NCBI GenBank assembly: GCA_964442455.1
Contig: CAYTZB010000001.1
Location: 85,910-149,909 of the forward strand
DNA from: an uncultured Gammaproteobacteria bacterium
GTDB taxonomy: Bacteria > Patescibacteriota > Microgenomatia > UBA8517 > JACQJR01
Direction: 5' to 3'
Length of the DNA stretch: 64,000 nucleotides
Both the position numbers and the translations under genes were made by a program. The notes under the pieces were generated by a model. That model did not search any database. It was not told where the DNA came from and saw only the letters and a list, made by a program, of their open reading frames with translations. This document shows positions 981 through 58,133 of this stretch, in pieces. The first letter of the stretch is position 1. Every line of letters begins with the position of its first letter.

Positions 981-3002
981 ATGAAAAAACAAGAAGAAAT
1001 AATCGGTGAAAATTTGTTAGCAAAGGAAGAGGTCAACCAACCACAGAATTCTACGGGAGAAAGTTCCAAACCCGTTTTGCAACAACTTCCAACCATTGGA
1101 AAGAAACTGTCCATCAGCGCTCTTGCCGGAACTCTAGGGGTTGGCCAAAACAAAAAGGTATGGATAATAACAAGTGCAATAGTTCTTATCCTGCTCTTCT
1201 TTGCTATGCTCCCATTGTTTGGTGTGGTACGCGCGGTGGGTAAACTCTCGCGAACAGTCAAACAAGTTCAGGATGGTTTCCGTGCACAAGATTTAGGGTT
1301 AGTGAAGCAGGGTTTAACACAGCTTGACAGTGATCTTACTGGGTTTGAGAGAAGTTTAACGCCACTGGTGTGGGTGAGAGTTCTCCCTTGGGTTGGTCTC
1401 TATTGGCGTGATGCAAAACAAGCTACTGTCGCAGCAAGAGAGGGCATTGAGGCTGCACAGATTCTTATTCCCGCAGTTGAGCCATTTGCTGATATTTTAG
1501 GATTTGGAGGAGCTGCTCCGCCATCTGGTGAAGCGGACGGTGCAAAAACAGCGGAGGAACGTATTGACTTTATTGTTGCTTCTTTGCCCTCAGTTTTGCC
1601 AAAAATTGACGAGGTAAAAGGAAAACTTATTACTGCGCGAGATGCCATTAATACTATTGATGCTTCCCGCTACCCCGCTACATTCCGTGGGAAACAGATA
1701 CGTTCAACAGTGCTCACCTTACAAACGTTTATTAGTCAAGCGAGCTCGCTTTTGGTGGATGGTAAGCCACTCTTGGAACGTCTTCCTTACCTTCTCGGTA
1801 TGGAGGCGGAGCGCACCTACTTAGTGATATTTCAAAATGACAAAGAATTGCGTCCGACAGGCGGTTTTATGACTGCATACTCCTTAATGAAAGTCAAAAG
1901 CGGCAAAATTCAGCCGGTAAACTCAGATGATATTTACAACCTCGACAAGCGATACCGTGCCCATATCACCGCACCCAAACCCTTCCTTACCCATATTAAG
2001 CAGCCCTACGGTGCCAATCCTAATTGGCGGCTGCGGGATATGAACTGGTCGCCTGATTTTAAGACGGCAATAAGCTTATTTATTGAGGAAGCAAAGACAG
2101 CTGGGCTCAAGGAAGTAGATGGAGTTATTGCGGTTGATACTAATATACTCGTGTCACTCCTTGAGGTGACGGGCCGAATTGGTGTGCCAGAACAAGGGAA
2201 TTTCTCAGCAGAAAAAGACCCTCGCTGTGATTGCCCTCTGGTGATTTATGAGCTTGAGTCATATGCTGATGTTGAGAAACCGATTGTGTGGGATCCAAAC
2301 ACCGGTAAAATTGTGTATGGAGAAATTGTTGATAACAGAAAAGCGATACTTGGACCACTGGTTAATTCCGTTATCGCCAATTCCCTCGCGCAACCAAAAG
2401 AAAAAGTTCCTGTCCTTGCCCAAGCAGTTCTTTCGAATTTAATGGACAAGCACGTACTGTTCTACATGTTTGATGAGGATACGCAGAAAGCAATAGAGAC
2501 ATTTAACGTGGGAGGAAGAGTGAAAGATACGAAGGGAGATTATCTTCAAATTGTTGATGCAAATATTGGTGGTCGCAAAGCCAACTTGTATGTTCAGCAA
2601 GAGGTGGTAGATAAAGTTACGAAAAAGGGTGATAAAGTCGTACATGAGCTTGAAATTACCTATAAAAATCCACAAAAACATGACGGATGGCTCAATTCGG
2701 TGCTTCCTAACTTTATGCGTGTGTATGTCACACCTGGAGCAAAACTCATTTCTTCCTCTGGTGCTGGAGATATAGAGACTTCAGAGGAATTTGGTAAAAC
2801 CGTATTTAATGGATTCTTTGAACTTCGACCCGAAGGAGTAGTAAAAGTGATGCTTGAGTACGAAGTGCCCAAGGTGGGAGAGCCTTATACATATCTTGTT
2901 CAACAACAACCGGGTAAACCTGTATCACGCTATACCATTACTGTCGGAAAGGACAGCGAGGAGTTTGAACTGAAGAATGACCGGCAACTTCGTTTTCATT
3001 GA
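981..3002 (+). CDS. DUF4012-family membrane-anchored envelope protein
   Basis: 673-aa ORF with an N-terminal TM segment (IITSAIVLILLFFAMLPLFGVV). The central motif LVIFQNDKELRPTGGFMTAYSLMKV is typical of DUF4012. Confidence 0.65.
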   Translation: MKKQEEIIGENLLAKEEVNQPQNSTGESSKPVLQQLPTIGKKLSISALAGTLGVGQNKKVWIITSAIVLILLFFAMLPLFGVVRAVGKLSRTVKQVQDGFRAQDLGLVKQGLTQLDSDLTGFERSLTPLVWVRVLPWVGLYWRDAKQATVAAREGIEAAQILIPAVEPFADILGFGGAAPPSGEADGAKTAEERIDFIVASLPSVLPKIDEVKGKLITARDAINTIDASRYPATFRGKQIRSTVLTLQTFISQASSLLVDGKPLLERLPYLLGMEAERTYLVIFQNDKELRPTGGFMTAYSLMKVKSGKIQPVNSDDIYNLDKRYRAHITAPKPFLTHIKQPYGANPNWRLRDMNWSPDFKTAISLFIEEAKTAGLKEVDGVIAVDTNILVSLLEVTGRIGVPEQGNFSAEKDPRCDCPLVIYELESYADVEKPIVWDPNTGKIVYGEIVDNRKAILGPLVNSVIANSLAQPKEKVPVLAQAVLSNLMDKHVLFYMFDEDTQKAIETFNVGGRVKDTKGDYLQIVDANIGGRKANLYVQQEVVDKVTKKGDKVVHELEITYKNPQKHDGWLNSVLPNFMRVYVTPGAKLISSSGAGDIETSEEFGKTVFNGFFELRPEGVVKVMLEYEVPKVGEPYTYLVQQQPGKPVSRYTITVGKDSEEFELKNDRQLRFH

Positions 3003-3046
3003 GGCGAATAGTTTTCATCTTCCTTGGGTTTTAATTGTCCATAACG

Positions 3047-3595
3047 ATGAGAGAGAAAACATACAAGGCTGAGGCGATTATCTTGGCCCGTCGTAATATA
3101 GGGGAGGCGGACAGGCTTCTTACGGTCTTTTCGAAGCATAATGGAAAGTTACGGATCATTGCAAAAGGAGTAAGGCGACCGACGAGTAGAAAACGAGGGT
3201 CTTTAGAGCTCTTTGCCTGCGTGCGACTTTTTCTGGTAAAAGGAAAAACGTTTGATATTGTGACCGAAGTAGAATTAAAAGAGAATTTTAATTCGTGGAG
3301 GGAGAGTTTGGTGCGTGTGGGTGTTGCCTACCATCTTGCAGAGGTGGTTAGTAAATTGACCAGAGAAGATCAAGAAAATAAAGTTGTTTATGGTATCCTC
3401 TTTAACGCTTTCTCACGATTGCACATAATAAATTATTGGCAATTGCATCATTTTATTTCGGAATTTAAGCGCCAGATTTTAGTCGAGCTTGGGTTTTTAG
3501 GAAGAAGTAAGGAGGAGAAAGAGCTTGATGACTATATCGAAGAGCTAACTCAGAGTAAACTCCGCACAAAGAGATTTTTACGCTCCCTTTCCTAA
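3047..3595 (+). CDS. recO: DNA repair protein RecO
   Basis: The N-terminal OB-fold signature AIILARRNIGEADRLLTVFSKHNGKLRIIAKGVRRPTSRKRGSLELF matches RecO. ATG 3047 is preferred over TTG 3035. Confidence 0.7.
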   Translation: MREKTYKAEAIILARRNIGEADRLLTVFSKHNGKLRIIAKGVRRPTSRKRGSLELFACVRLFLVKGKTFDIVTEVELKENFNSWRESLVRVGVAYHLAEVVSKLTREDQENKVVYGILFNAFSRLHIINYWQLHHFISEFKRQILVELGFLGRSKEEKELDDYIEELTQSKLRTKRFLRSLS

Positions 3596-8395: not shown

Positions 8396-10126
8396 ATGGA
8401 TAATAGAGCTCGTTTTGTGGGAATACTGCTTGGCGCAGGCACACTTTTACTGATAGGACGACTTTTCTTTTGGCAAGTTGTGAAGGGAGCACAACTTGCT
8501 CAATATGCACGTTCTCAATACCTTCGCGCTGAAGAAATTGCAACACAGCGAGGTTCAATACTTGCCAACGATGGGGGGGTACTCGCGACCTCTCAAATTA
8601 CATGGCAAGTGTGGGCAGATCCGACAAAACTCACCAAAACGCCCGTTGATATTGCCCGTCTTTTGGCGCCTATTTTTTCCCGAGAACTACTCCCGGAAGA
8701 TGCTTCGGGAGAAGCTGAGCTTTCTTTTATTGAGAGAAAAGAGGAGCAACTGGAGAAAGCACTTGCCAAGCGTGATATACGGTGGGTGCTTCTTGCCGAT
8801 AAGTTGTCAAATGAGGGAAAACGCGTAGTTGAGAATTTGTCACTTCCCGGAGTGGGATGGACACTGGGGGAAAAACGGTTTTATCCCGAGGGAAGCGCGG
8901 CCGCGCACTTATTGGGATTTGTGGGAAAAGATGAGAGCGGAGAGCGGGGATATTTTGGACTAGAAGGGTTTTATGATATAACGCTTAAAGGTGTGAAAGG
9001 GATACAGAGAGCGGAGCGTGATGTGCGGGGAAATCCTATCCCTTTTGGGTTGTTTAATGAGATTGCCCCAACACAGGGACTTGATATCGTGACGTTTATT
9101 GACCGAACGGTACAGTATATTATAGAGAGGCATTTAGCTTCTGGTATTGAAAAATATGGGGCAAAGGGAGGCAGTGTGGTAGTGATGAAGCCGACAGGAG
9201 AGATACTTGCAAGTGCAACTTTTCCCTCATATGACCACACGCGGTACAGCGAAGCCGACTCATCTCTGTTTAAAAATCCGGCGGTTGCCGACTCATTTGA
9301 GCCGGGGTCTGTATTTAAGATTCTTGTGATGGCAGCGGCACTGGATAGCGGAGCGGTCAAGCCGGATATGCGATGTGACGCATGCAGCGGGCCAGTGACG
9401 ATTGGAAAATATCAAATTCATACGTGGGATGACAAGTATTACCCCGAGACAAGTATGACAGATATAATCAAACATTCAGATAACATTGGGATGGTTTTTG
9501 TAGGTGGGAAATTGGGGGGAGATAAAATGTGGGATTATTTGAATAGGTTTGGGATTGGGCGATTAACCGGTATCGATCTTCAAGAAGAATCAACGTCAGA
9601 GCTTAGGCCAAAGGGTAGGTGGGGTGATATTGATGTGGCAACCGCGTCATTCGGGCAGGGGGTTGCGGTGACCCCCGCTCAGTTACTCCGAGCGGTTGCG
9701 GCGATTGCCAATCATGGTGTTCTTCCGGTACCCCGGGTTGTAGATAAGATGAGAGAAGGTACATGGGAAGAGGAGACTGAGGTAAAAGACGAAGGAAGAG
9801 TAATTAGCGAGGATGCAGCGGTGAAAATTACAGAGATGATGATTGAAGCTGTACGCGCAGGTGAGGCAAAATGGGCAGCACCAAAGGGATTTTTGATTGC
9901 GGGAAAAACCGGAACCGCACAAATTCCTATTGCCGGACACTACGATCCTGAAAAAACAATTGCATCATTTATTGGTTTTGCGCCTGCGGACTCGCCAGAA
10001 TTTGTCATGCTCGTCTCGCTTAGAGAGCCAACATCGTCTCCTTTTGGTTCCGAAACAGCCGCGCCTCTTTGGTTTTCTATTGCCCGTGACCTCTTTCCAT
10101 ATTTCGGCATTGGTCCATCTCAATAA
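8396..10126 (+). CDS. ftsI: Peptidoglycan D,D-transpeptidase (class B PBP, FtsI)
   Basis: TM anchor present. PBP dimerisation region, then the transpeptidase motifs SVFK (SxxK), HSDN (SxN-like) and KTGTA (KTG). ATG 8396 is preferred; the ORF-track start 8213 overlaps ftsL. Confidence 0.85.
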   Translation: MDNRARFVGILLGAGTLLLIGRLFFWQVVKGAQLAQYARSQYLRAEEIATQRGSILANDGGVLATSQITWQVWADPTKLTKTPVDIARLLAPIFSRELLPEDASGEAELSFIERKEEQLEKALAKRDIRWVLLADKLSNEGKRVVENLSLPGVGWTLGEKRFYPEGSAAAHLLGFVGKDESGERGYFGLEGFYDITLKGVKGIQRAERDVRGNPIPFGLFNEIAPTQGLDIVTFIDRTVQYIIERHLASGIEKYGAKGGSVVVMKPTGEILASATFPSYDHTRYSEADSSLFKNPAVADSFEPGSVFKILVMAAALDSGAVKPDMRCDACSGPVTIGKYQIHTWDDKYYPETSMTDIIKHSDNIGMVFVGGKLGGDKMWDYLNRFGIGRLTGIDLQEESTSELRPKGRWGDIDVATASFGQGVAVTPAQLLRAVAAIANHGVLPVPRVVDKMREGTWEEETEVKDEGRVISEDAAVKITEMMIEAVRAGEAKWAAPKGFLIAGKTGTAQIPIAGHYDPEKTIASFIGFAPADSPEFVMLVSLREPTSSPFGSETAAPLWFSIARDLFPYFGIGPSQ

Positions 10127-10268
10127 ATATCTTGACAACAGCCGAAAATATGTAATACCCTTTACGTAGGACATAAAACCTGTTTCAAAACTTGCGCATC
10201 AGCTTTACTGGTTTGCTTAAGGTAGGTTTTGTGAAGCCGTTTTGAAACGACTTCATAGTAATTAATTT

Positions 10269-10646
10269 ATGTCAGCAGAACTGCCCCGCTGGACGTTTGA
10301 TGCTGCTGGGAGACCCCAAGACTTAATTCATAATGGAAAAATTGTGCTTCAAGACGGAAGACCAGTATTTGCGGAGAATAATTGTATTACTTTCGAGGAA
10401 GGCAAAAGTGGTGCACTTTTAGTAATCCGTGAACCAGAGAGTTCCGTATCATCATCTCTTTACATATTACGGCCAGAAGTAGGTAACTTTAGACTTATTC
10501 AAAATAGTATTGAGAGGAGGTTAAGTCTCGTGCCTTTGAGCGGGCAAATCGATGGAAACGGAAGGTCATTCACAATTCCCGACATGAGTTCAGTTTTGAG
10601 ACAAATAAGACTTCGTTTAGAAAAGCTTCCAAGAACCTCGCAATAA
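10269..10646 (+). CDS. Hypothetical protein (orphan, 125 aa)
   Basis: ATG-initiated ORF in an AT-rich insert between ftsI and murE. No recognisable motif. Confidence 0.45.
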   Translation: MSAELPRWTFDAAGRPQDLIHNGKIVLQDGRPVFAENNCITFEEGKSGALLVIREPESSVSSSLYILRPEVGNFRLIQNSIERRLSLVPLSGQIDGNGRSFTIPDMSSVLRQIRLRLEKLPRTSQ

Positions 10647-10733
10647 CTTCTTTTGAACTTAATTGTGGTATAATTCTTTGTTAAATCGTATGAATTGTTA
10701 AACAATTCTTAGCCTTGAATTTTTGAAACTTAG

Positions 10734-10818
10734 ATGTGTAGGCACCTTCGAGGTGTACGCAGGTATGGTACTATTACCACACTACAGAATATGGCAGTTG
10801 TTTAGTAATCTAATGATT
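10734..10818 (+). repeat. Copy A of a duplicated intergenic module (41-nt identical core 10743-10783, two hairpins, 23-codon micro-ORF)
   Basis: CACCTTCGAGGTGTACGCAGGTATGGTACTATTACCACACT is identical to 11741-11781. TATGG(C/T)AGTTGT and CTAATGAT are also shared downstream. Confidence 0.8.
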
Positions 10819-10842
10819 TAAATCACTGGATCAGTATGTTGG

Positions 10843-10870
10843 TTGACAAACGGATTACATTTGCTATAGT
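10843..10870 (+). promoter_or_regulatory. Promoter of the 272-aa orphan ORF
   Basis: TTGACA (10843-10848), a 16-nt spacer, then TG-n-TATAGT (10865-10870), followed by TAAGCTAAATTTATG. The architecture matches 11844-11871. Confidence 0.6.
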
Positions 10871-10882
10871 TAAGCTAAATTT

Positions 10883-11701
10883 ATGGCAGCTTCAATTGCT
10901 GAACGATTGGGGGTGACTTTAGAGCGTTTAGGTAAGGGGTTACAAGAAAGAGCAAGACCAAAAGAATCAACTTCTCCGGAACTTCTTCGTGATAAAGCAT
11001 TAGAATTATGGAGATTGACTGCTCCTGGACGCAAAGCTGATCCAAGCACCTCTGCTATTTCTTATTTCGTTTTCTCCTCTTCAGAAGGAGTTACTGCAGA
11101 CACTCAGGAAAAACAACTATTTGATGATTTATTAAAACCATATTGGCATGTCCATGATTATGATGGTTTTATGGTTATACTTTCAGTAAATCCGGATAAA
11201 CTTCCTAGTGTTTCATTTAAACTCTCCATTTTAGCTCCAGCTCCACCACAATTACCCTTTGAAGGTAAGTCTGCTGTTTTAGCATTTAGAGAATTTCCTC
11301 CAGATAGGAGTCGAAGGAGAGACTATCCTTATAATTTGCTTATTCAAGGAGAAAATAGAAATTTTTATTCTGATATATTGGATCAAGAAGTTACCGGTTT
11401 TGATCCTACTCAAGGATTACAATGGCAACAATTAGAAAAATACTCTGTTGATTATCAACCAAGAGGTGATATTGAATGGAGAAAAAAATTCACAAGCGAT
11501 GTTCTTGATCTCTTAATCGATATTATTAAAAAAATAGGATACGATGAAGTTGCTCAGGCTAGGATGGATCAATTTTGGAGGAGAAGTAGCATGATTCGGG
11601 GACGGTGGCTTGGTGAAGTTGAAAGTGAAAATCGGGAAGTAGATTATCGCCGACATTTTAATAATACTTCCTTGTCCCGCCGTAACAGGTTTAGTGTTTA
11701 A
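10883..11701 (+). CDS. Hypothetical protein (orphan, 272 aa)
   Basis: ATG-initiated ORF with its own promoter. A spot-counted 60-nt line (11161-11220) is about 30% G+C. No family recognised. Confidence 0.55.
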   Translation: MAASIAERLGVTLERLGKGLQERARPKESTSPELLRDKALELWRLTAPGRKADPSTSAISYFVFSSSEGVTADTQEKQLFDDLLKPYWHVHDYDGFMVILSVNPDKLPSVSFKLSILAPAPPQLPFEGKSAVLAFREFPPDRSRRRDYPYNLLIQGENRNFYSDILDQEVTGFDPTQGLQWQQLEKYSVDYQPRGDIEWRKKFTSDVLDLLIDIIKKIGYDEVAQARMDQFWRRSSMIRGRWLGEVESENREVDYRRHFNNTSLSRRNRFSV

Positions 11702-11728
11702 CTGTAATCGGTATTTTGAGGCTAATTA

Positions 11729-11816
11729 ATGGTGCAGACACACCTTCGAGGTGTACGCAGGTATGGTACTATTACCACACTCGGTGTATGGTAGTTGTAC
11801 AACGACTCTAATGATA
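11729..11816 (+). repeat. Copy B of the duplicated intergenic module (core 11741-11781, 21-codon micro-ORF preceded by GAGG)
   Basis: Same 41-nt core as copy A and the same downstream conserved blocks. Confidence 0.8.
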
Positions 11817-11843
11817 TGTATTATTAGAGCGATACCTTTTTTA

Positions 11844-11871
11844 TTGACAATTGAATCCTCTCTGATATAGT
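11844..11871 (+). promoter_or_regulatory. Promoter of the 183-aa orphan ORF
   Basis: TTGACA (11844-11849), a 16-nt spacer, then TG-n-TATAGT (11866-11871), followed by TAAGCTGAATTTAT. Confidence 0.6.
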
Positions 11872-11893
11872 TAAGCTGAATTTATAAGCTATT

Positions 11894-12445
11894 ATGACTG
11901 AATTAAGTCGCACCGACGGATTAGGAGAACCAGGTGAGCATGAAGCGTTTGAAGAATTAGATCCTCACAGAATTGCCCAACTTTTTGGAACAACAGCGAA
12001 ATTAACTTATTATGAAATTCGTTATGAGCTTGAAACAAATAAAGAAATTAAGAGAATTCCTGTGTGGGTGATTGATATTATAGAAAGGTCAAAATTAAGA
12101 CTTGTACAGCTATTCGTTGCACCAGAGATAAGACAAGTAGGTGTGGTTTCTAGTTTGCTTTTCAGCTCAAATTTACCACCCAACGTTGAGCCTGATCGGT
12201 ACGGTGAGACAAACCATACAGCCCGACTTGAGGGTGTGCAACAAGTTGAAGTTCGAAGATATCCTTTTTCCTCCCCATATACCAACGTAAGTTTTATTAT
12301 AGAAGACGAAAAAACAAAGTCAGTGCTACAAGTTGACTCTCGAGCAACATTCAGATTTGACTTTATGCAGAAAGAAGAATTAGGTAAGTATGCAATAGGT
12401 TTAGAAGAGATAAGGAACTTTTTCCGACGCGTTTCTCATTTTTGA
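11894..12445 (+). CDS. Hypothetical protein (orphan, 183 aa)
   Basis: ATG-initiated ORF. No recognisable motif. Confidence 0.55.
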   Translation: MTELSRTDGLGEPGEHEAFEELDPHRIAQLFGTTAKLTYYEIRYELETNKEIKRIPVWVIDIIERSKLRLVQLFVAPEIRQVGVVSSLLFSSNLPPNVEPDRYGETNHTARLEGVQQVEVRRYPFSSPYTNVSFIIEDEKTKSVLQVDSRATFRFDFMQKEELGKYAIGLEEIRNFFRRVSHF

Positions 12446-12455
12446 ACCTAAATCG

Positions 12456-12464
12456 TGGTATAAT
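12456..12464 (+). promoter_or_regulatory. Extended -10 promoter (TGgTATAAT) 7 nt upstream of the murE ATG (leaderless-type)
   Basis: TG at 12456-12457, TATAAT at 12459-12464, ATG at 12472. Confidence 0.5.
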
Positions 12465-12471
12465 TTACATA

Positions 12472-13818
12472 ATGGATGTGGTGAAGACGGTATTTGGGAA
12501 GAGTCGTTGGTATGGGCCGATCAGAAACTTCCAACACTTCGTAGAAGCAGTCTTCGCAGTTATTAAAAATGGATATCCTGCGCGAGATTTAACGGTTATT
12601 GGTGTGACAGGAACAGACGGAAAGACAACAACGTCGCACATTATCTCATCAATTCTTCAAGAAGCAGGAATTAAAACTGCGCTTATCTCAAGCGTCGGTG
12701 CATTTATTGGTGATGAGGAGGTCGATACAGGCTTCCATGTAACGACTCCTGATCCAAAATTACTTCAACCACTTCTCGTAAAGATTAAAGAGAAAGGAAT
12801 AACCCATGTTGTTATAGAAGCAACATCTCATGGACTTGACCAACACAGACTTCTTGGATGTAATTTTAAAGTGGGAGTTTTGACAAATATTACTCATGAA
12901 CATTTAGATTACCATCAGACGTTTGAAAGATATAGAGACGCTAAAGTAAAGTTGTTTCGCGGTGTTAAAACTGCTGTTTTAAATAGAGACGATGACTCAT
13001 TTTCCTACATAAAATCAAAAACAAATCCTGGTACTCGTGTCATTGCTTACAGCGTAAAACAAAATGCTACGTTATGGGCAGATAAAGTTTCATTTAATTG
13101 GAAGGGTATGGAATTTCGTGTGAGAGAAGGAAGATCAAGTATTACGCTTACAACAAAACTTATTGGTGAATATAATGTTTCAAATATACTCGCTGCTGTT
13201 GGAGTCGCGCGCGGAATTGGAATTTCATGGGAAGCGATTAAGGAAGGGGTCGAAAGGTTTGGAGGAATTCCAGGAAGGATGGAAAGAGTTGATGAAGGAC
13301 AAACGTTTGCCACCTTTATTGATTTTGCACATACACCAGCGGCTCTTGAGAGCGTATTGACACTTCTTAAGAAATTAAAAACTCGAGATAGTAAACTCAT
13401 CGTTGTATTTGGAGCAGCAGGAGAACGGGATGTTAGCAAGAGGGCTTTGATGGGTGAAATTGCCGCCCGTTTGGCTGATTTTACCGTGTTGACTGCCGAG
13501 GATCCGCGTACCGAGAATCTTAACAGGATTATTGATGATATTACACGGGGGATAAGGCAAAATGCTAAAGTGTGGGATGGTGTTGTGGATTGGAGAAAAG
13601 AAGGAAGCTGGTGTATTCGAGTTCCTGAGCGGGGTGAAGCGATTGCATTTGCCGCTCAAAAGTTGGCGAAAGGTGGGGATATTTTGGTGATTTGCGGAAA
13701 AGGCCATGAGAAATCAATGGCATTTGATCACACCGAATACCCATGGTCAGACCAGGAAGCAGCTAGGGTAGCGCTCAAAGGGAAAATTAAAAGAGTAAAA
13801 AGAGGACAATTAACCTAA
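12472..13818 (+). CDS. murE: UDP-N-acetylmuramoyl-L-alanyl-D-glutamate--2,6-diaminopimelate (or L-lysine) ligase MurE
   Basis: Mur ligase P-loop VIGVTGTDGKTTT, central domain TNITHEHLDYH, and the C-terminal motif DFAHTP. Confidence 0.9.
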   Translation: MDVVKTVFGKSRWYGPIRNFQHFVEAVFAVIKNGYPARDLTVIGVTGTDGKTTTSHIISSILQEAGIKTALISSVGAFIGDEEVDTGFHVTTPDPKLLQPLLVKIKEKGITHVVIEATSHGLDQHRLLGCNFKVGVLTNITHEHLDYHQTFERYRDAKVKLFRGVKTAVLNRDDDSFSYIKSKTNPGTRVIAYSVKQNATLWADKVSFNWKGMEFRVREGRSSITLTTKLIGEYNVSNILAAVGVARGIGISWEAIKEGVERFGGIPGRMERVDEGQTFATFIDFAHTPAALESVLTLLKKLKTRDSKLIVVFGAAGERDVSKRALMGEIAARLADFTVLTAEDPRTENLNRIIDDITRGIRQNAKVWDGVVDWRKEGSWCIRVPERGEAIAFAAQKLAKGGDILVICGKGHEKSMAFDHTEYPWSDQEAARVALKGKIKRVKRGQLT

Positions 13819-13922
13819 TTGACCTAATTATTCTAATTTCTAAAGAATGTCTAATGACAATTTTAAGAATTTCATATTTGGGATTTCTTTAGGTTAATTA
13901 GAAATTAGTAATTAGAAATTTA
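13809..13922. repeat. Imperfect long palindrome built from phased CTAATT / AATTAG units (element E1)
   Basis: Left arm: TAACCTAATTGACCTAATTATTCTAATTTCTAAAGAA. Right arm: TTCTTTAGGTTAATTAGAAATTAGTAATTAGAAATT. It fills the murE-murC spacer and is homologous to 36451-36590. Confidence 0.7.
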
Positions 13923-13929
13923 AGTTTTT

Positions 13930-15354
13930 ATGGATATAAAAACTTTGAAACATATCCATTTCACCGGCATTAAGGGTGTCGGTATGACAGCGCTTGTCTT
14001 ATGTGCACAGGATTTGGGGATAAAGGTAACCGGTTCTGATGTTGCCGAGGTATTTGTGACGGATGAGACACTAGAAAAGCGTGGGATAAGATGGAATGTG
14101 GGATTTGGTGAAAAGAATTTAGACCCGAGGCCTGATTTAGTTATTACCACCGGTGCTCATGGTGGATTACGCAATCCTGAGGTAGTGGCAGCACAAAAAA
14201 TGGGTATCCGAGTGTTAACACACGCCCAGGCGCTGTATGAATTTACGAAGGGGAAAGAAGTTATCGCGGTATGCGGAGTAGGTGGTAAATCAACGACCTG
14301 CGCAATGATTGCAACGATTTTTGATGAAGCAGGACTTCATCCGTCGTTTGCTATAGGCGTGGGGGACATTCCATCACTTGGTGCTCCGGGAAGATACGAT
14401 AAGAAGGGGAACGTGTTTATTGTTGAGGCGGACGAATATGCAATTTCTCCGGGGGTTGATAACCGGCCGCGGTTTAGTCTACTTTCTCCGCGAGTCATTG
14501 TTGTTACTAATATTGAGCATGACCATCCTGACATTTATAAAACTTTAGAGGATACGAAAAGAGCGTTTCGAGAATTTTTTGAAAAATTACCCAGCGATGG
14601 TTTGCTTGTTGCAAATGGAAACAGTGAGAATGTCCGCACGATAACTAAAAATCTCAAAGTAAGAGTTATAATGTACGATATTGAAAATTTAGAACTTTCT
14701 ATTCCTGGTAAGTTTAATCAGGCAAATGCGACTGCAGCTTCTGCAGTTGCAAAATTTTATAACAGCATTCAAGAATACTCCGCAATTTATTGCGGAGATG
14801 AATTGAACGCTGATATGTCATCCTCCTTTAGAGGGAAACCCAGCTCGTTAGAGCGGGGAGGATGTCATAAAATCCCAGAAGAAATAATTAAAAGAGGACT
14901 CCAAAATTTTAAAGGTGTTAGACGTCGGTTTGAAAAAATGGGTGAAATAAATGGAGTATTGTTTTATGATGATTACGCTCATACCCCAAATGAAATAAGG
15001 GCTACACTAGGAGCCGCTCGTGAATGGTTTAATAACCAACGCATAGTTGCAGTTTTTCAACCTCATACCTATTCTCGAACAAAAGCGTTACTTAGCGAAT
15101 TCGCGAAGAGTTTTAGTGATTCGGACATAGTTGGAGTTATGGATATTTATGCTTCCGCTCGGGAGAATGATACTTTAGGTATGTCGGGAGAGCTACTTGC
15201 AAAAGAAATTTCTCGATACCACAAAAATGTTGCCTATACGGGTAATCATGAACGAACTATTGAGTGGATTAAAAAAAATAGTAAAAGCGGTGATATAGTT
15301 TTGACTTTAGGGGCAGGCGATATTTTTTTATTGCACAGGATAATTAATTCATAA
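13930..15354 (+). CDS. murC: UDP-N-acetylmuramate--L-alanine ligase MurC (carries an in-frame ~38-codon repeat-element insertion)
   Basis: HFTGIKGVGMTAL, GVGGKSTT, NIEHDHPD, FKGVRRRFE and YDDYAHTP motifs are present. The segment NSIQEYSAIYCGDELNADMSSSFRGKPSSLERGGCHK is encoded by the repeat at 14757-14870. Confidence 0.9.
   Translation: MDIKTLKHIHFTGIKGVGMTALVLCAQDLGIKVTGSDVAEVFVTDETLEKRGIRWNVGFGEKNLDPRPDLVITTGAHGGLRNPEVVAAQKMGIRVLTHAQALYEFTKGKEVIAVCGVGGKSTTCAMIATIFDEAGLHPSFAIGVGDIPSLGAPGRYDKKGNVFIVEADEYAISPGVDNRPRFSLLSPRVIVVTNIEHDHPDIYKTLEDTKRAFREFFEKLPSDGLLVANGNSENVRTITKNLKVRVIMYDIENLELSIPGKFNQANATAASAVAKFYNSIQEYSAIYCGDELNADMSSSFRGKPSSLERGGCHKIPEEIIKRGLQNFKGVRRRFEKMGEINGVLFYDDYAHTPNEIRATLGAAREWFNNQRIVAVFQPHTYSRTKALLSEFAKSFSDSDIVGVMDIYASARENDTLGMSGELLAKEISRYHKNVAYTGNHERTIEWIKKNSKSGDIVLTLGAGDIFLLHRIINS
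14757..14870 (+). mobile_element. MITE-like hairpin element, long form, copy 1 (inside murC, in frame)
   Basis: 114 bp, homologous to 58021-58133 and to 25471-25538. Termini TTATAACA...TGTCATAA form inverted repeats. There are two internal 8-bp hairpins. Confidence 0.7.
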
Positions 15355-15361
15355 TATCGAT

Positions 15362-15379
15362 ATATTCATATATGAATAT
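15362..15379. promoter_or_regulatory. 18-bp perfect palindrome ATATTCATATATGAATAT overlapping the murB start codon
   Basis: The 16-bp core TATTCATATATGAATA recurs identically at 52856-52871. Confidence 0.4.
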
Positions 15380-16313
15380 CCGCATCACAGAAAACATTTT
15401 ATTCTCTTCCCTTACGACTCTCAGAATTGGTGGGCCCATAAAGTATTTTGCACCTGCAACTACAGAAGAGGAACTATTTCATTTAATTGAAATGGCAAAA
15501 GGGAAGAGCTTGCATTACTTGATTATAGGTGGCGGAAGTAATCTACTCGTATCAGGCGATGGATTTGATGGATTAGTTATTCAAAATCTTATTCAATCAA
15601 TTGAAAAGAAAGACGATGTTTTGGAGGTTGGTGCTGGTACAGATTTGCAAGCCCTTGTATGGTATGCAAATAAAAGTGGAATTTCTGGTTTTGAAAAACT
15701 GGCGGGTATTCCGGGAAGCGTGGGGGGGGCGGTGTATGGGAATGCAGGAGCATATGGACAGGCTATTTCTGACAATGTTTTGTGGATTGAAGTAGGAGAA
15801 CCAAAAGATGGAACAACGAAAAAACTAAAAAGTGAAGAATGTGGATTTGGTTATAGAAAGAGCAAGTTTAAAGAAACAAAAGATTTGATACTACGGATGG
15901 GATTTTCAATTACACCTGGTGACAGTAAGGAGCTTCTCAAAACTTCTCAAGAAATTGTGAAGATGCGAATGCAAAAATATCCTCCGGGTATTGCCTGTCC
16001 GGGAAGCTTTTTTAAGAATGTAGAAGTAGATAAACTTGATAAAGGCATTCTTTCCCGCATTCCAAAAGATAAAATTATGTTTGGGAAAATTCCCGCAGGT
16101 TGGTTGCTTGAAGAAGTTGGGGCAAAGGGAGCAAGAAAAAATGGTGTAGAGATTGCACCGTGGCATGGAAATTTATTTGTGAACCAAGGTGGGGGAAGAG
16201 CAGAAGACTTTTTATATTTAGCAAAAGAATATAGGCAAAAGGTTAAAGAACGGTTTGGTATCGAACTTGAGCCAGAAGTACAGTTGGTTGGATTTAAAGA
16301 GAATATGTTTTAA
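15372..16313 (+). CDS. murB: UDP-N-acetylenolpyruvoylglucosamine reductase MurB
   Basis: FAD-binding pattern LTTLRIGGP...LIIGGGSNLLV and a C-terminal MurB domain. Confidence 0.9.
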   Translation: MNIRITENILFSSLTTLRIGGPIKYFAPATTEEELFHLIEMAKGKSLHYLIIGGGSNLLVSGDGFDGLVIQNLIQSIEKKDDVLEVGAGTDLQALVWYANKSGISGFEKLAGIPGSVGGAVYGNAGAYGQAISDNVLWIEVGEPKDGTTKKLKSEECGFGYRKSKFKETKDLILRMGFSITPGDSKELLKTSQEIVKMRMQKYPPGIACPGSFFKNVEVDKLDKGILSRIPKDKIMFGKIPAGWLLEEVGAKGARKNGVEIAPWHGNLFVNQGGGRAEDFLYLAKEYRQKVKERFGIELEPEVQLVGFKENMF

Positions 16314-19791: not shown

Positions 19792-19793
19792 CT

Positions 19794-19848
19794 AAATGGC
19801 TGGATGGTCAAATGGTTAACAATTAGCCATGTAACCATTTTAACCATT
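19794..19848. repeat. Imperfect palindrome of AATGG / CCATT units followed by a T-run (element E2; possible murA terminator)
   Basis: AAATGGTTA (19810-19818) pairs with TAACCATTT (19832-19840). Outer AATGG/CCATT units are also present, and T8 follows at about 19852-19859. Confidence 0.5.
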
Positions 19849-19859
19849 AAATTTTTTTT

Positions 19860-25346: not shown

Positions 25347-25470
25347 ATTCGAAGCACGAAGCTCGAAACAATATCTAAATTCAAATACCCAATGTTCAAA
25401 AAGGTTTAGAATTTTGAATTTTACTTATTTGAAATTTGTTTAGGATTTCGAATTTAGAATTTCGGATTTA
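25347..25470. repeat. Imperfect long palindrome of TTCGAA / TCTAAATT-type phased units (element E3)
   Basis: Left arm: AAATTCGAAGCACGAAGCTCGAAA...TCTAAATTCAAATA. Right arm: TATTTGAAATTTGTTTAGGATTTCGAATTTAGAATTTCGGATTT. Confidence 0.6.
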
Positions 25471-25538
25471 TTATAACAGCATTCAAGAAAACTCCCGACT
25501 TTTAGTCGGGTGATGAATTGAACGCTGATATGTCATAA
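25471..25538 (+). mobile_element. MITE-like hairpin element, short form, copy 2 (abuts the ftsA start codon)
   Basis: 68 bp, TTATAACAGC...GATATGTCATAA. It equals the long form minus the segment between two ATGTCAT direct repeats. Confidence 0.7.
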
Positions 25539-25541
25539 GTT

Positions 25542-26810
25542 ATGGCTAAAGGAAAAGTTATTGCCGGAATAGATATTGGTTCTTCCAAAGTTGCGACCGT
25601 CATAGGCAGTGCAAATCCAGAGGAAGAAGTACTACAAGTTTTGGGAGTGGCGTCTGTTCCTGCTCCGCCTGATGGAATTAAGAAGGGGCAAATTGTTGAT
25701 ATTGAGAAAGCCTCTGGGGCGGTTGTAGCTTCGGTTGAGAAAGCAGAACGGATGGCGGGGTTTGCACTCGATAACGTCGTCGTTGTTATTAATGGTGGAC
25801 ATATTCAGGGTCAAAACTCTCATGGGGTTGTTGCAATATCCTCCCCGGAGGGAGAGATAGAAGGAAGTGATGTTGAGCGGGTCATTGATGCCGCGCGTGC
25901 GATATCTCTTCCAGCTGGTCGCGAAGTTATTCATGTGCTCCCTTGTGAGTTTATTGTAGATGGGGAGAAAGGGATAAAGGATCCGGTGGGAATGAGTGGG
26001 GTGCGGCTTGAGGTAGAAGCGCATATTGTAACCGCGTCAACAACTGCCATTCGCAATTTAACCAAGTGTGTAAGTGAGGTGGGAGCGAGAATTTCCGGTG
26101 TGGTGTTCTCGGGGTTTGCCGCCGCCGCATCGGTGCTTTCTGATACCGAACGGGAACTAGGAGTCGTGTTAATTGACCTTGGAGCGGGGACGACCTCAAT
26201 TGCCGTTTTCACCGATGGCGCACTGGTTCACTCGCGAGTGCTTCCTATTGGTTCAAAAAATATTACCAATGATTTAGCTATAGGACTGCGCACCTCGCTT
26301 GAGAGTGCTGAGAAGATTAAAATTTCTCTCTCCGCAGCAAGTAAAAAAGACAAAGAGGAAGACGAGATAGACGTGTCGGGGTTGGGTGTTGATGGAGGGG
26401 AACGGACTGTGTCAAAAAGGACCCTTTCAGAGGGGATTATACGGCCTAGACTCAACGAAATTTGGAGTATGGTAGGGATGGAGCTCAAGGCCACGGGTCT
26501 TGGAGGGAGAACCCCGGCAGGAGTGGTGATTACCGGAGGGGGAGCGTTAACGGTAGGAGCGGTTGAGTCAGCACGGCGAATCTTAGCCCTTCCTGTTCGG
26601 GTGGGAATTCCCACCGGTATTTCGGGATTGGTTGACGATGTCTCAACGCCCGCATTTGCCGCAACGGTTGGGGCGGTTGCGTGGGCAGCACAAAACGTTG
26701 CCCCTCCTTCGGGTTTTCGTATTGGTCAGTTCACCCGTCCCTTCGAAAGCCTCCCTGTAAAAGGAGTGGTAGGCAAGGTGGTTGAGGTTATAAAAGGATT
26801 GCTGCCATAA
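25542..26810 (+). CDS. ftsA: Cell division protein FtsA
   Basis: Actin-like ATPase motifs GIDIGSSKV and LIDLGAGTTSIAVF, with the characteristic C-terminal region. Confidence 0.9.
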   Translation: MAKGKVIAGIDIGSSKVATVIGSANPEEEVLQVLGVASVPAPPDGIKKGQIVDIEKASGAVVASVEKAERMAGFALDNVVVVINGGHIQGQNSHGVVAISSPEGEIEGSDVERVIDAARAISLPAGREVIHVLPCEFIVDGEKGIKDPVGMSGVRLEVEAHIVTASTTAIRNLTKCVSEVGARISGVVFSGFAAAASVLSDTERELGVVLIDLGAGTTSIAVFTDGALVHSRVLPIGSKNITNDLAIGLRTSLESAEKIKISLSAASKKDKEEDEIDVSGLGVDGGERTVSKRTLSEGIIRPRLNEIWSMVGMELKATGLGGRTPAGVVITGGGALTVGAVESARRILALPVRVGIPTGISGLVDDVSTPAFAATVGAVAWAAQNVAPPSGFRIGQFTRPFESLPVKGVVGKVVEVIKGLLP

Positions 26811-27021: not shown

Positions 27022-28794
27022 ATGATCGCTGAACGTCAAGAAAATAAAGCCGTTCAATTGAACGGTCGAGATTGGTTATCCCCTGAGGTTGATGATATTG
27101 CACGTCAAGCAATTAGAGATATGGTGCCGCAGAGATCTGAGGATGGTAATGGTTTGCATTCACAGGAAGAGTTAAATAATGCATTATCAATTTCTTCCTT
27201 TCGTAGAAATGGTCTCCTTGGAATGTTACATATAAAATTTGATGGCGATATTGAGCAAGCTTTAAGATTTGCATATCCTGAGATTTTTAGAAAACCACTT
27301 TTACATCTTGATGAACCTCATTATGGTGATCCTTTTCAAGAAACATGGAGGGAAAGAGAACGCGAAATTGAAGGCAGAATAATATCGACGATGGAAAGGA
27401 GTAGGTTAGGTCATATCTATTTCTACGATAATGAAGTTATTGATAGTGATCAAAAAGCAAGGAAACTTATGAAATTGGGTAGACGGGTCGAGCGCCATGT
27501 AAACCGAAGAAATACCCGTGAACGTCATCACGAAAAAATAGACGTTGACGAATGGCAGGGAAGAGAAAATGAAGATTTTCAAAGAGCAATAGTTCGTTTT
27601 CTAAAACTTGGTGATAGCGTCGCAGGTTTTCTCGGCAGCAACGATACTGAAATTCCACGTTCTATTTTAAATCGAATTGGACAACAAGGAGTATTTTATA
27701 TGATAGGTCGCAGAAATTATCCTTATAACGAACTCGCCGGTTCATTTCCTAACGCAAATAATAGAGGAATCGAGGACGAACTTTTAGCAAGAGCTCTTGA
27801 GTTGGGAGAGTCTTTAATATTGAACAACTACGATCAAGAACAAATAAAAAAAACACTTAACGGTCATAAAATCTATCCAGTTGTCTACAGACCTCCCAAT
27901 CTTCCTGAAGAAATTTCTCGACATTCTTTAAATGCTTTCATTGTGAGCGATCGAGTAAGGGAAATTTTGGAAGAATTTAGGGAAGATTTCCTATGGGCAA
28001 TAGATTCAGCTTTAAAACAAGGTGGATATTTAATTTTTCGAGAAAACGCCAGGCAACAGACAAATATTGAGTACTATGGCCAAGATCTTTGGTCTAGCAG
28101 ATATCAAAGAGTAGGGACGGGAACGAAATCGGCCCAATTAATGATTTTTCGTAAAGTTGCTACAGGTAATTCTATGGTTAGTATTTCTCAAACAGTTTCA
28201 GAAAGTTCTCAATCGACTGAAAATGAAGAGGAATTTGGAGTGTGTACTATTGAACATAAGTGGGAATTTGAAAACGGAGAAGGGGCTGATAAGCAAATTT
28301 ACGCAGCACTTAAGCATGTTATTGAACAAAAACATAGATTAAACGGGGAAGTTACAGAAGCTCAACAGATAGACGAGTTACTAAAAGGAACGTTGAGCGT
28401 AAGTTGGTTTAGGAAAACTGGGCTTTTGCCAATCTTATTTAGTCGGTTTGGCGGAAGTGTTGAAAAAGCAGCGGAGTTTGTTATAGAACATAACCAAGCA
28501 GGAAGAACTCCTCCAACTATTATCCAAAGATCTCCTGAAGGGGCAAAATCCTCTTATAATCTCTACGATCTTGCCAAAGAATTGGGAGTTAGGATAGATG
28601 TTATTAGAAAAACTCTAAATAATGCTGGTATAAAAGGAGTACAGTCACAAAGAAATAAAGGGAATTTTCACCCCCAAACAAGTAGAATGCAATTTTCTTA
28701 TCAGGAGTTTTTAACATTAAGAGATGTATTACGGAGGGATTTAAATGTAGAAAAGGCTACCAAGGAAAGGAGCGATAATGCAGAGAGAATTTGA
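27022..28794 (+). CDS. Hypothetical 590-aa protein with two copies of a ~75-aa module shared with the SNF2-sigma protein, plus a C-terminal HTH-like segment
   Basis: Module copies lie at nt 27073-27287 and 28261-28493 (W..(F/L)..., L(S/N)xSxF(R/Q)(R/K)xGLL...FxGxxxxAxxF). The C-terminus YNLYDLAKELGVRIDVIRKTLNNAGIKG is HTH-like. There is a 17-nt overlap with the next ORF. Confidence 0.7.
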   Translation: MIAERQENKAVQLNGRDWLSPEVDDIARQAIRDMVPQRSEDGNGLHSQEELNNALSISSFRRNGLLGMLHIKFDGDIEQALRFAYPEIFRKPLLHLDEPHYGDPFQETWREREREIEGRIISTMERSRLGHIYFYDNEVIDSDQKARKLMKLGRRVERHVNRRNTRERHHEKIDVDEWQGRENEDFQRAIVRFLKLGDSVAGFLGSNDTEIPRSILNRIGQQGVFYMIGRRNYPYNELAGSFPNANNRGIEDELLARALELGESLILNNYDQEQIKKTLNGHKIYPVVYRPPNLPEEISRHSLNAFIVSDRVREILEEFREDFLWAIDSALKQGGYLIFRENARQQTNIEYYGQDLWSSRYQRVGTGTKSAQLMIFRKVATGNSMVSISQTVSESSQSTENEEEFGVCTIEHKWEFENGEGADKQIYAALKHVIEQKHRLNGEVTEAQQIDELLKGTLSVSWFRKTGLLPILFSRFGGSVEKAAEFVIEHNQAGRTPPTIIQRSPEGAKSSYNLYDLAKELGVRIDVIRKTLNNAGIKGVQSQRNKGNFHPQTSRMQFSYQEFLTLRDVLRRDLNVEKATKERSDNAERI

Positions 28795-34700: not shown

Positions 34701-34951
34701 ATCAGCCAATCAGCAGAATTAGAAATTCTAAAGAAAGACTTGTCAAGACTCGCAGAATTGAGCCTAATCCAAAGTATGTTGACAAAGGAGCTAGTGCAGC
34801 TCTAGAGGAGTACTTATCAACACATCATGGTGATGAAATTAATTTATCAGAGTTTGCGCGCTCTATTGGTATTAGCCGCGAACGCGCAAGCCAACTCTAC
34901 AAGCGGTTAACCAATTCGCAGCTTAAGGAATTAATGACGCGGAGGAAGTAA
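28778..34951 (+). CDS. Giant fusion protein: N-terminal shared module + SNF2-family ATPase + complete primary-type sigma-70 factor + C-terminal array of ~8 HTH-like units
   Basis: SNF2 motifs: SDEPGTGKT (nt ~30563), [11 protein letters not shown] (~30938), [17 protein letters not shown] (~31781). Sigma motifs: region 1.2 [16 protein letters not shown] (~32182), region 2 [49 protein letters not shown], region 4 [13 protein letters not shown]...[17 protein letters not shown]. It is a single uninterrupted ORF. Confidence 0.88.
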   Translation: [2057 protein letters not shown]

Positions 34952-36407: not shown

Positions 36408-36436
36408 TTGACAACTCCTGAAAATTTATCCACAAT
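36408..36436 (+). promoter_or_regulatory. Candidate ftsZ promoter
   Basis: TTGACA (36408-36413), a 17-nt spacer, then CACAAT (36431-36436). The predicted ~150-nt 5'UTR contains element E4. Confidence 0.55.
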
Positions 36437-36450
36437 AGGCCACAAGTGAA

Positions 36451-36590
36451 ATTAACCTAATTAACCTAATTGCTCTAATTGATCTAAATTTTGAAGATTT
36501 GTAGTTTAAAAATTGGGATTTATTTAGAAATTAGAATAATTAGAAATAAGCAGAGCTTGTTTCTCGCAAGCTCGAAATTAGAAATTTTTA
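36451..36590. repeat. Imperfect long palindrome of CTAATT / AATTAG phased units (element E4, homolog of E1) plus an internal 7-bp hairpin
   Basis: Left arm: ATTAACCTAATTAACCTAATTGCTCTAATTGATCTAAATT. Right arm: TTTAGAAATTAGAATAATTAGAAAT...GAAATTAGAAATT. The hairpin is GAGCTTG-TTTCTCG-CAAGCTC. Confidence 0.65.
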
Positions 36591-40571: not shown

Positions 40572-41147
40572 CTACCTTCTCGGGAGTATGATTGAAGTTG
40601 GCGGCTCAAGCGAAAGGTTTCCCATCTTCAAAAACATACACGCAAGTGCAAACCCATAATCATCTTTTAATGACTCGGGTACTGTTAATGCTTCTCTGAA
40701 TCTGCGTGGCCATAATACCTTTATTACTCTCTCCCCGTTTTCTCGCTTGGAACTTTCAAGACCGGCTACGACTTCTACATGAGGCAAAAGCGACAAGATA
40801 AGTTGTCGAGCCAACGGATCGCGAGTGTTAGGGAATGGTTGTCTCGGAAGTGATTCAATAATCCCATTAACCAGATTAAGTTCTTGTTTCACTTCTTCTT
40901 GTGTGGTTGCGGTGAAATCAAATTCCATAAAACGGATAGTCCCTGAAATTTCATCAAAATAGACGATATAGACACTCTGTAGATGTCTTGTCTGGTCAGG
41001 TCCTATTTGTGCTCGGGTAGGTCGGACAATTCTATGACGGAATTCTTCTGACATGTAGAGTTGTTCAAGAAGATCTGCAACACGTGCCTGATCGCTTGAT
41101 TTAAGCTGTTCTATTATTGGGGCAATACCAGTACGTTCCTGCCGCAT
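40572..41147 (-). CDS. Hypothetical protein (191 aa)
   Basis: ATG-initiated ORF divergent from 41230. No family recognised. Confidence 0.5.
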   Translation of the reverse strand: MRQERTGIAPIIEQLKSSDQARVADLLEQLYMSEEFRHRIVRPTRAQIGPDQTRHLQSVYIVYFDEISGTIRFMEFDFTATTQEEVKQELNLVNGIIESLPRQPFPNTRDPLARQLILSLLPHVEVVAGLESSKRENGERVIKVLWPRRFREALTVPESLKDDYGFALACMFLKMGNLSLEPPTSIILPRR

Positions 41148-58007: not shown

Positions 58008-58020
58008 AGCAGTGAGTTTA

Positions 58021-58133
58021 TTATAACAGCATTCAAGAAAACTCCCGACTTTCAGTCGGGAGATGAATTGAACGCTGATATGTCATCCTCCTTTAGAGGA
58101 AACCCCGCTTTTCAAAGCGGGGAGGATGTCATA
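58021..58133 (+). mobile_element. MITE-like hairpin element, long form, copy 3 (intergenic)
   Basis: TTATAACAGC...GGATGTCATA, with hairpins CTCCCGAC-TTTCA-GTCGGGAG and CCCCGCTT-TTCA-AAGCGGGG. Confidence 0.75.

Follow-up and report, generated by a model that had tools for sequence, protein, structure and literature searches.

What is the AT-rich palindrome that separates two Mur ligase genes, murE and murC, in the division and cell wall (dcw) cluster of a bacterium that its MurC homologues assign to the Microgenomates? The DNA analysed here, called the window in the following, comprises 64,000 nucleotides (nt) of contig CAYTZB010000001.1 (assembly GCA_964442455.1), and it contains this spacer element as well as a similar one upstream of ftsZ. 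In our reading, to which we give a probability of roughly 60%, both are miniatures, devoid of an open reading frame (ORF), of a palindromic selfish element family that is distributed throughout the candidate phyla radiation (CPR)/Patescibacteria. The family has a fixed polarity, exists in short and long forms with common ends, and occupies tight operon spacers variably among relatives. It is probably a mobile selfish element and not a dcw regulator, because its full-length form carries a four-helix-bundle gene of the kind known from rRNA intervening sequences (IVSs); nothing links it to dcw-specific regulation, including that of murC or ftsZ.

The murE-murC element covers positions 13808-13921 and, on the + strand, displays CTAATT three times and then AATTAG three times. 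An earlier reading made from the letters alone, here called the sequence-only reading, had described an imperfect palindrome of phased CTAATT/AATTAG units, and this is borne out. It had also given a unit spacing of 9-11 bp for both arms, which fits the left array (CTAATT at 13815, 13824 and 13833, phase 9 nt) but not the right one (AATTAG at 13896, 13903 and 13910, phase 7 nt). Nested within the arrays is an inner pair, CTAAAGAA (13840-13847) and TTCTTTAG (13885-13892), and outer half-units AATT stand at 13808-13811 and 13917-13920. The murE stop codon (TAA, 13816-13818) does lie within the first CTAATT unit, while the murC ATG at 13930, formerly placed 8 nt after the last unit, begins 14 nt past the last AATTAG and 9 nt past the terminal AAATTT. 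Both flanking ORFs encode Mur ligases: the one upstream (12442-13818) lacks the N-terminal catalytic domain and is called MurE-like for this reason; in the one downstream (13930-15354), all three domains of the MurC type are present, including the N-terminal one. The parts of the element, with other loci given by L numbers, are the following.

13808..13847, + strand: left arm of the murE-murC element, with AATT, three CTAATT units with spacers AAC, GAC and ATT, and the inner CTAAAGAA; supported by a hidden Markov model (HMM) of the arms and by identity to L009 and L191.
13847..13877, + strand: centre of the murE-murC element, without an intact ORF; ATGTCTAATGACAA (13847-13860), then 17 nt without a match.
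13878..13921, + strand: right arm of the murE-murC element, with the inner TTGGGATTTCTTTAG (13878-13892), three AATTAG units and the outer AAATTT (13916-13921); supported by identity to L009 and L152.

Could such a spacer arise by local drift of AT-rich sequence or be mere low complexity? The plain hexamer CTAATT is not over-represented across the window (41 found, 55 expected), as this explanation would have it. However, the phased pattern CTAATTN3CTAATTN3CTAATT, with at most one mismatch, has three matches against 0.01 expected from shuffles, about 300 times chance. Together with the orientation of paired arrays (52 to 1) and the arm identities of 93-97% across genomes, both described below, this refutes drift, to which we assign practically no weight, and upholds the former view that the element is not local low complexity. 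On the whole 64-kb window, the arm HMM, built from 64 arms, recovers only the murE-murC and the ftsZ-upstream elements.

The ftsZ-upstream copy (36450-36586) shows the same layout, with CTAATT at 36457, 36466 and 36475 and AATTAG at 36529, 36538 and 36576, and both copies have the common centre TTGGGATTTmTTTAG, confirming that they belong to one family, as had been proposed. Its right arm contains an inserted G+C hairpin (stem 36553-36559 / 36567-36573), and the ftsZ ATG follows at 36593, just past this arm. If the promoter-like site listed below is used, this copy would lie in the ftsZ 5' untranslated region.

36450..36489, + strand: left arm of the ftsZ-upstream copy, with AATT, three CTAATT units and the inner CTAAAT; 31/32 identical to L009 2950-2981.
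36513..36586, + strand: right arm of the ftsZ-upstream copy, with TTGGGATTTATTTAG (36513-36527), AATTAG at 36529 and 36538, the G+C hairpin, AATTAG at 36576 and AATT at 36583-36586.
36408..36436, + strand: promoter-like TTGACA-17-CACAAT with 10/12 consensus matches; a consensus match only.

A scan of the GTDB, with one genome per species and the phased triple as the pattern, gave at least 120 loci. About half of the 120 loci listed are CPR-labelled and come from many classes, among them Roizman-, Shapiro-, Levyi-, Curtiss-, Doudna-, Staskawicz-, Yanofsky-, Uhr-, Magasanik-, Moranii- and Sungiibacteria, Kuenenbacteria, Saccharibacteria and Microgenomates. The dispersed family suspected from the two window copies is thereby real and wider than could be seen from the window, and the absence of additional copies, which had been named as one part of a refuting result, was not what we found: further copies occur across CPR genomes, among them many Saccharibacteria MAGs (metagenome-assembled genomes). 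Among the listed GTDB loci, a CTAATT array is followed by an AATTAG array within 500 nt in 52 cases and the order is reversed in one, whereas none of the 120 loci listed from the same scan of viral contigs has paired arrays of either order. This means that the inverted polar architecture is a real entity; it was seen solely in genome loci, which are mostly CPR-labelled. The arm consensus reads aAAATT, then 3 x (RNY)CTAATT, then CTAAAnAA..cccAAt, amounting to about five units; their phase is 9 nt, and steps of 7 nt are a common variation. Between the arrays lie 0 to ~470 nt, often with small G+C hairpins.

Some loci depart from this layout. In L088 (504-608), eleven AATTAG units follow each other with near-perfect 9-nt phase and one 18-nt step; the MAG, QMOL01, is labelled Chlamydiae and also holds a typical paired element (L007). 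This label could be erroneous, or the range of the element could extend beyond the CPR. In MAG JAJXZR01 (L035 540-729, L054 6379-6534, L095 3281-3397), CTAATT elements are nested in a G+C-rich inverted repeat, ..GACCCGGGATCCAGG.. / ..CCTGGATCCCGGGTC.., so that one palindrome encloses another. Copies in tandem or nested arrangement likewise stand beside ORF-bearing elements in L147, L169, L188 and L199.

The full-length form of the element connects the family to a protein. In L009, L019 and L033, the ~360 nt between the arms encode a TIGR02436 four helix bundle protein of 119-129 amino acids (aa), with E values of 2e-16 to 7e-19 and 66% mutual identity. Among solved structures, the ORF profile matches PDB 2RLD only, whose entry comprises five chains of the matched sequence. 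In the reverse direction, metagenomes were scanned by protein similarity only, which yielded at least 582 relatives of the ORF, and the 110 nt on either side were then inspected for two or more CTAATT upstream and two or more AATTAG downstream. Both arms flank the ORF in 53 of the 72 best relatives with enough flanking sequence, and nearly all others are one-armed. The ATG of the ORF sits in the inner left arm (CTAAAyAATG) and its stop directly abuts the inner right arm; relative to neighbouring genes, it is co-directional in 26 cases and antisense in 7. The element family is thus tightly linked to the TIGR02436 four-helix-bundle ORF.

The window copies resemble this form with the ORF removed. 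In the murE-murC element, the left arm is identical to L009 2951-2994 at 41/44 positions and to L191 1452-1488 at 36/37, and the right arm to L009 3350-3392 at 41/43, including the unusual 7-nt phase, and to L152 at 44/46. In L009 the ORF occupies 2990-3349, and the match of the right arm begins directly after its stop. Since both arms, at 93-95% identity, match the very sequences that bracket the L009 ORF, the murE-murC element can be described as the L009 element minus the ORF. Moreover, the central ATGTCTAATGACAA corresponds to the start of the four-helix-bundle ORF in full-length elements (e.g., L019, MSND...). Among ORF-less elements, the arm resembling the ORF start lies upstream in the sense direction in 17 cases and downstream in 5, with both window copies conforming to the majority; ORF-less copies therefore have the same polarity as full-length ones.

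How such elements sit in genomes was analysed for 54 of them, the 52 from the GTDB loci and the two window copies. In most, the arm ends are 0-16 nt from the flanking ORFs; with such short spacers, the arm supplies the stop codon of one host gene, and the next gene begins a few nt past the other arm. Forty-three of 51 stand between co-directional genes, six between convergent and two between divergent ones. Downstream of 48 elements we found unrelated housekeeping genes, including miaA, atpC, gatA/B, secY, lon, recF, gltX, rplC, rpsG, dinB and murC, which rules out a specific regulon of MraZ or another dcw regulator. Several MAGs have two to four copies, and the window has two in 64 kb. Copies within a genome are 0.50-0.80 identical (mean 0.67), compared to 0.625 between genomes, and particular arm variants are nearly identical across genomes. 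Judged from these sequences, old, horizontally shared element lineages would fit the identity pattern better than recent local bursts.

Relatives with and without the insert could be compared at the orthologous spacer, as the sequence-only reading had suggested, and three states were encountered: filled, empty, or filled with another unit type.

L122, MurC 64% identical to that of the window: the murE-murC spacer is a CTAATT element.
L124, MurC 66% identical: the murE-murC spacer is 2 nt only.
L121, MurC 81% identical: the murE-murC spacer is a 114-nt palindrome with the unit CAAAGT / ACTTTG.

MurE of the window and of L122 reads into the element and ends at the TAA of the arm, 3-5 residues beyond the C-terminus in L124 and L121. 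In the murA-mraY spacer, unit types turn over likewise: that of L121 (15780-15920) is built from CCATT/AATGG, and that of L122 (15369-15494) is a CTAATT element.

Further palindromes of this sort were noticed in the window. Its own murA-mraY spacer (19792-19859) is a 68-nt palindrome with AAATGG three times and then CCATT three times, at 8-9-nt phase and with AATTAG at the centre. The spacer before an ftsA-like gene (25542-26810) contains a palindromic element (25347-25467) with outer units of the TCGAA type; further inside, CTAAATTCAAATACCCAATG ... TTTGAAATTTGTTTAG is similar to the inner arms of CTAATT elements. Adding these to the two CTAATT copies, the region from murE to ftsZ (12.4-37.7 kb) holds four palindromic elements. 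The G+C hairpin of the ftsZ-upstream copy (AAGCAGAGCTTGTTTCTCGCAAGCTCGAAAT, window 36549-36573) recurs with ~90% identity at L121 15848-15880, inside the different-flavour element of the L121 murA-mraY spacer, and small G+C hairpins are hosted by many CTAATT elements of other genomes (e.g., CCTGCCTGCCGGTAGGCAGG).

These data bear on a different explanation, in which the units form a binding array for a global DNA-binding protein of the host (a nucleoid-associated protein or transcription factor), or curved DNA, governing many operons including dcw. The strict 6-bp motif, the variable 3-bp spacers, the 9-bp phase, the lack of covariation between arms (see below) and the position ahead of many genes all agree with it. 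Yet the distance between the arrays ranges from 0 to ~470 bp, there is no common regulon, orthologous spacers are not consistently occupied, promoter-like matches do not exceed chance, and the arrays are tightly linked to the element's own ORF. We consider this explanation rather improbable. Of the nucleoid-protein or bent-DNA array put forward by the sequence-only reading, what stands is a changed form, with units that look like binding sites, most plausibly for the protein of the element itself.

A second alternative concerns the RNA. An element beneficial to the host, akin to repetitive extragenic palindromes (REPs), bacterial interspersed mosaic elements (BIMEs) or enterobacterial repetitive intergenic consensus (ERIC) sequences, could shield the 3' end of the upstream mRNA by its hairpin, or provide an RNase III site that uncouples murE from murC, and be kept by selection. 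In its favour, the elements mostly lie between co-directional genes (43/51), their units are conserved in old copies, and the stems of rRNA IVSs are RNase III substrates (PMC4990558). The predicted stems are substantial though imperfect: the fold of 13800-13932 (-26.7 kcal/mol, z = -2.5) and that of the ftsZ-upstream copy (-34.2 kcal/mol, z = -2.8) beat shuffles, and many relatives reach -40 to -58 kcal/mol. However, compensatory covariation is missing. At each of their three positions, the 3-nt spacers of opposing arms yield Watson-Crick matches more rarely than do shuffled pairs. Among the 14 elements whose two arms are both strict, chimeric combinations of arms pair better (-26.2 kcal/mol) than the two arms of one element (-23.2 kcal/mol, p = 0.013). 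Sense and antisense strands do not differ in folding energy (24 versus 17, p = 0.23), the orthologous spacer is empty in L124 and of another unit type in L121, and a plain hairpin would need neither the CTAATT sequence nor a fixed polarity. Sub-shuffle complementarity, poor own-arm pairing and the lack of strand asymmetry rule out a structured RNA with covariation; what is under selection is thus the 9-mer unit with its orientation rather than base pairing. An RNA stabiliser or processing site of the REP/BIME kind, as formerly offered, is possible, with neither covariation nor sense-strand bias as positive evidence, and we regard a host-beneficial RNA element as unlikely.

A bidirectional intrinsic terminator or attenuator, in which an AU-rich hairpin at gene ends is framed by an A-tract and a U-tract, would be suggested by the outer ends AAAATT ... 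AATTTT(T), by the U-rich stretches after the hairpin (AAATTTAAGTTTTT; AAATTTTTAAAA) and by six convergent against two divergent contexts. This split is not significant, though, the stems are AU-rich and interrupted, and a terminator scan calls none at the elements. Furthermore, one copy is inside an essential operon in which murC has no promoter-like site and the other directly before the ftsZ start, where termination would be harmful. A terminator is accordingly very improbable.

Other candidates were also discarded. Stop codons in all three frames of the arms are not special (36% versus 30% in shuffles). Promoter matches inside the element are at chance level, and the one conspicuous match, TTGACA-17-CACAAT, lies ahead of the ftsZ copy. 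An Rfam scan of the window at gathering score returned tRNAs only, and permissive Rfam scans of both window elements gave sub-threshold chance matches or nothing.

The mobile, selfish interpretation invites comparison with known systems, among which rRNA IVSs and intergenic palindromes of the MITE (miniature inverted-repeat transposable element) or ERIC type come closest. In S23p-encoding IVSs, inverted-repeat stems are cut by RNase III (PMC4990558), and 23S_rRNA_IVP ORFs are present in CPR rRNA insertions, both in 16S and in 23S (PMC11270868). As in the IVSs of Leptospira and Coxiella burnetii, inverted-repeat termini surround an ORF of the same family (TIGR02436/PF05635), and the likeness extends to shorter ORF-less versions and to what would be a selfish, horizontally spread existence within a host transcript (PMC4990558, PMC11270868). 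In contrast to IVSs, the CTAATT elements lie between protein-coding genes and not in rRNA helices 9, 25 or 45, their arms are phased 9-mer arrays and not simple complementary ends, and there are several copies per genome. With terminal inverted repeats able to form an imperfect stem, and a TIGR02436 ORF in the large forms (L009, L019, L033; 53/72) though not in the window copies, two features of IVSs are found; the location is nevertheless a different one (Mur ligase spacer, upstream of ftsZ), and no universal rRNA motifs were detected in the 120 + 80 loci scanned.

With MITEs and other intergenic palindromes (REP/BIME, ERIC, Correia/CREE, RUP, BOX), our elements share the form of imperfect palindromes of ~70-200 bp in multiple copies in transcribed intergenic spacers. 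They likewise have a short ORF-less and a longer ORF-bearing form with common ends, as demonstrated by both arms of L009, and a presence that is polymorphic among relatives. The partner ORF, however, the sole one, encodes the 119-129-aa four-helix-bundle protein and not a transposase or a REP-associated tyrosine transposase (RAYT), no clear target-site duplication is seen, and copies within a genome are not near-identical as in MITEs but 50-80% identical. The motif is conserved across phylum-level lineages. REP/BIME in the strict sense, defined by 20-40-nt hairpins, a GTAG-type tetranucleotide and RAYT transposases, was ruled out: the unit is RNYCTAATT in arrays, and no RAYT-like ORF occurs in the elements.

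The ends of Mu, Tn7 and the plant Ac/Ds and CACTA elements contain multiple subterminal protein-binding repeats. In layout only, with direct repeats at one end, inverted ones at the other and a variable distance between the ends, they look alike; unlike there, no DDE or other transposase was found here, and the CTAATT units have just 9 bp.

The ORF belongs to a family described as Avd-like, after Avd of the diversity-generating retroelements (PMC10053308). In our elements, by contrast, the gene is alone inside the palindrome; reverse transcriptases and template-variable repeats did not turn up in the short flanks, where no search was aimed at them. TIGR arrays have a 36-nt period with two alternating repeats of 8-12 nt and 9-nt spacers, run in one direction over 5-15 units and lie beside a Tas gene with a Nop domain (PMC12045711). 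Very short conserved repeats with short variable stretches in parasitic bacteria are a similarity, and TIGR-Tas also occurs in CPR and phages, but CTAATT units recur every 9 nt, separated by 3-nt spacers, form two arrays of 3-5 units that are inverted to each other, and come without a Tas gene. The 9-nt period, the inverted arms and the Mur/FtsZ neighbours rule out a TIGR array. No earlier description of the element was found in the literature searched, which does not prove that none exists.

Of the three functions that the sequence-only reading had offered, a miniature mobile element is therefore the best supported, by the ORF-bearing form, the variable orthologous occupancy and the unrelated neighbours. 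According to the mechanism that we envisage, the short form would have arisen by internal deletion, as in MITEs, and would be non-autonomous, relying on the protein of full-length copies. The conserved 9-mers would be putative binding sites for this protein, probably a multimer, and not pairing partners. The element would be co-transcribed with the dcw genes, its imperfect stem being tolerated and, by analogy with rRNA IVSs, possibly cut by RNase III.

Several points weigh against this reading. Neither a transposase or other catalytic protein in the elements, nor a clear target-site duplication at their ends, nor near-identical copies within a genome were found, and recent mobility is for these reasons not demonstrated. 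Both window copies are bordered by TTAA (13809-13812 / 13920-13923; 36451-36454 / near 36588), but these borders are not general, as L122 and most other copies lack them, and the sole empty site for comparison is L124. No four-helix-bundle ORF exists in the 64-kb window, where the protein would have to act in trans, and ATGTCTAATGACAA could be arm sequence rather than an ORF remnant. The direction of derivation, ORF deletion, is not proven and may be the reverse, an ORF having been inserted into a palindrome. Finally, even old and diverged copies that lack the ORF have perfectly conserved CTAATT units. This suggests that selection is ongoing, unlike what a purely decaying selfish remnant would show.

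The surroundings of the elements displayed a few other features. Overlapping the promoter-like site upstream of the ftsZ element is a perfect DnaA-box consensus, TTATCCACA, at 36426-36434. An oriC at this place was ruled out by the cumulative GC skew, which climbs monotonically across the window; with no origin there, the box is probably due to chance or a regulatory one. Between the ftsA-like gene and ftsZ lies an ORF of 2057 aa (28778-34951), followed by a 451-aa ORF without a Pfam match (34996-36351). The window genome rarely uses Shine-Dalgarno sequences, as seen at gene starts across the window (e.g., 27022, 34996, 41230 and, on the minus strand, 40572-41147), and a missing one after the element is thus not special. 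Many window genes have a TATAAT-like box just 10-20 nt ahead of the ATG, which suggests very short leaders. L121, the closest relative, has a single protein of 764 aa (10001-12295) that joins MurC and MurB, while the window has separate genes (13930-15354 and 15372-16313).

Two other repeats were identified in the window. One, of ~70 nt, is dispersed at 25468-25541 and 58018-58090 (two copies, none expected); 35 nt are identical (TTATTATAACAGCATTCAAGAAAACTCCCGACTTT), and it contains the hairpin CTCCCGACTTTnAGTCGGGnG, then GATGAATTGAACGCTGATATGTCAT. The other is a perfect 41-nt repeat, CACCTTCGAGGTGTACGCAGGTATGGTACTATTACCACACT, at 10743-10783 and 11741-11781, accompanied by a promoter-like repeat at 10843-10884 / 11844-11885. 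Both of the latter stand upstream of two adjacent genes without a Pfam match (10883-11701 and 11894-12445), and may represent a shared leader or regulatory RNA.

To our knowledge, no function outside diversity-generating retroelements has become known for the S23p / 23S-rRNA-IVS / Avd-like family since the 1990s, and we know of no explanation yet for the origin and spread of rRNA intervening sequences. Here, one large protein subfamily is tied almost one-to-one to a defined phased DNA/RNA motif array, and miniatures without the ORF are seen to be spread over operons in many CPR lineages. Tentatively, and as an idea that we ourselves hold to be doubtful, the Avd-like protein could bind the phased RNYCTAATT 9-mers, of which an arm has about five, as a multimer and with sequence specificity. 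Protein and arms together could be an unrecognised transposase-less mobile or self-maintaining element of operon spacers throughout the CPR, a free-living counterpart of the rRNA intervening sequences. If true, the S23p/IVS protein family would gain a concrete nucleic-acid target, and the sister elements with CAAAGT, CCATT and TCGAA units would have co-evolved protein partners. The RNYCTAATT arrays offer a testable target for the protein, and a comparative system for how elements move and are tolerated in essential operons. The elements also explain many peculiar AT-rich spacers and changed gene ends of the CPR, in the present case the final residues of MurE and its stop codon, and are to be masked ahead of searches for regulatory RNAs in CPR spacers.

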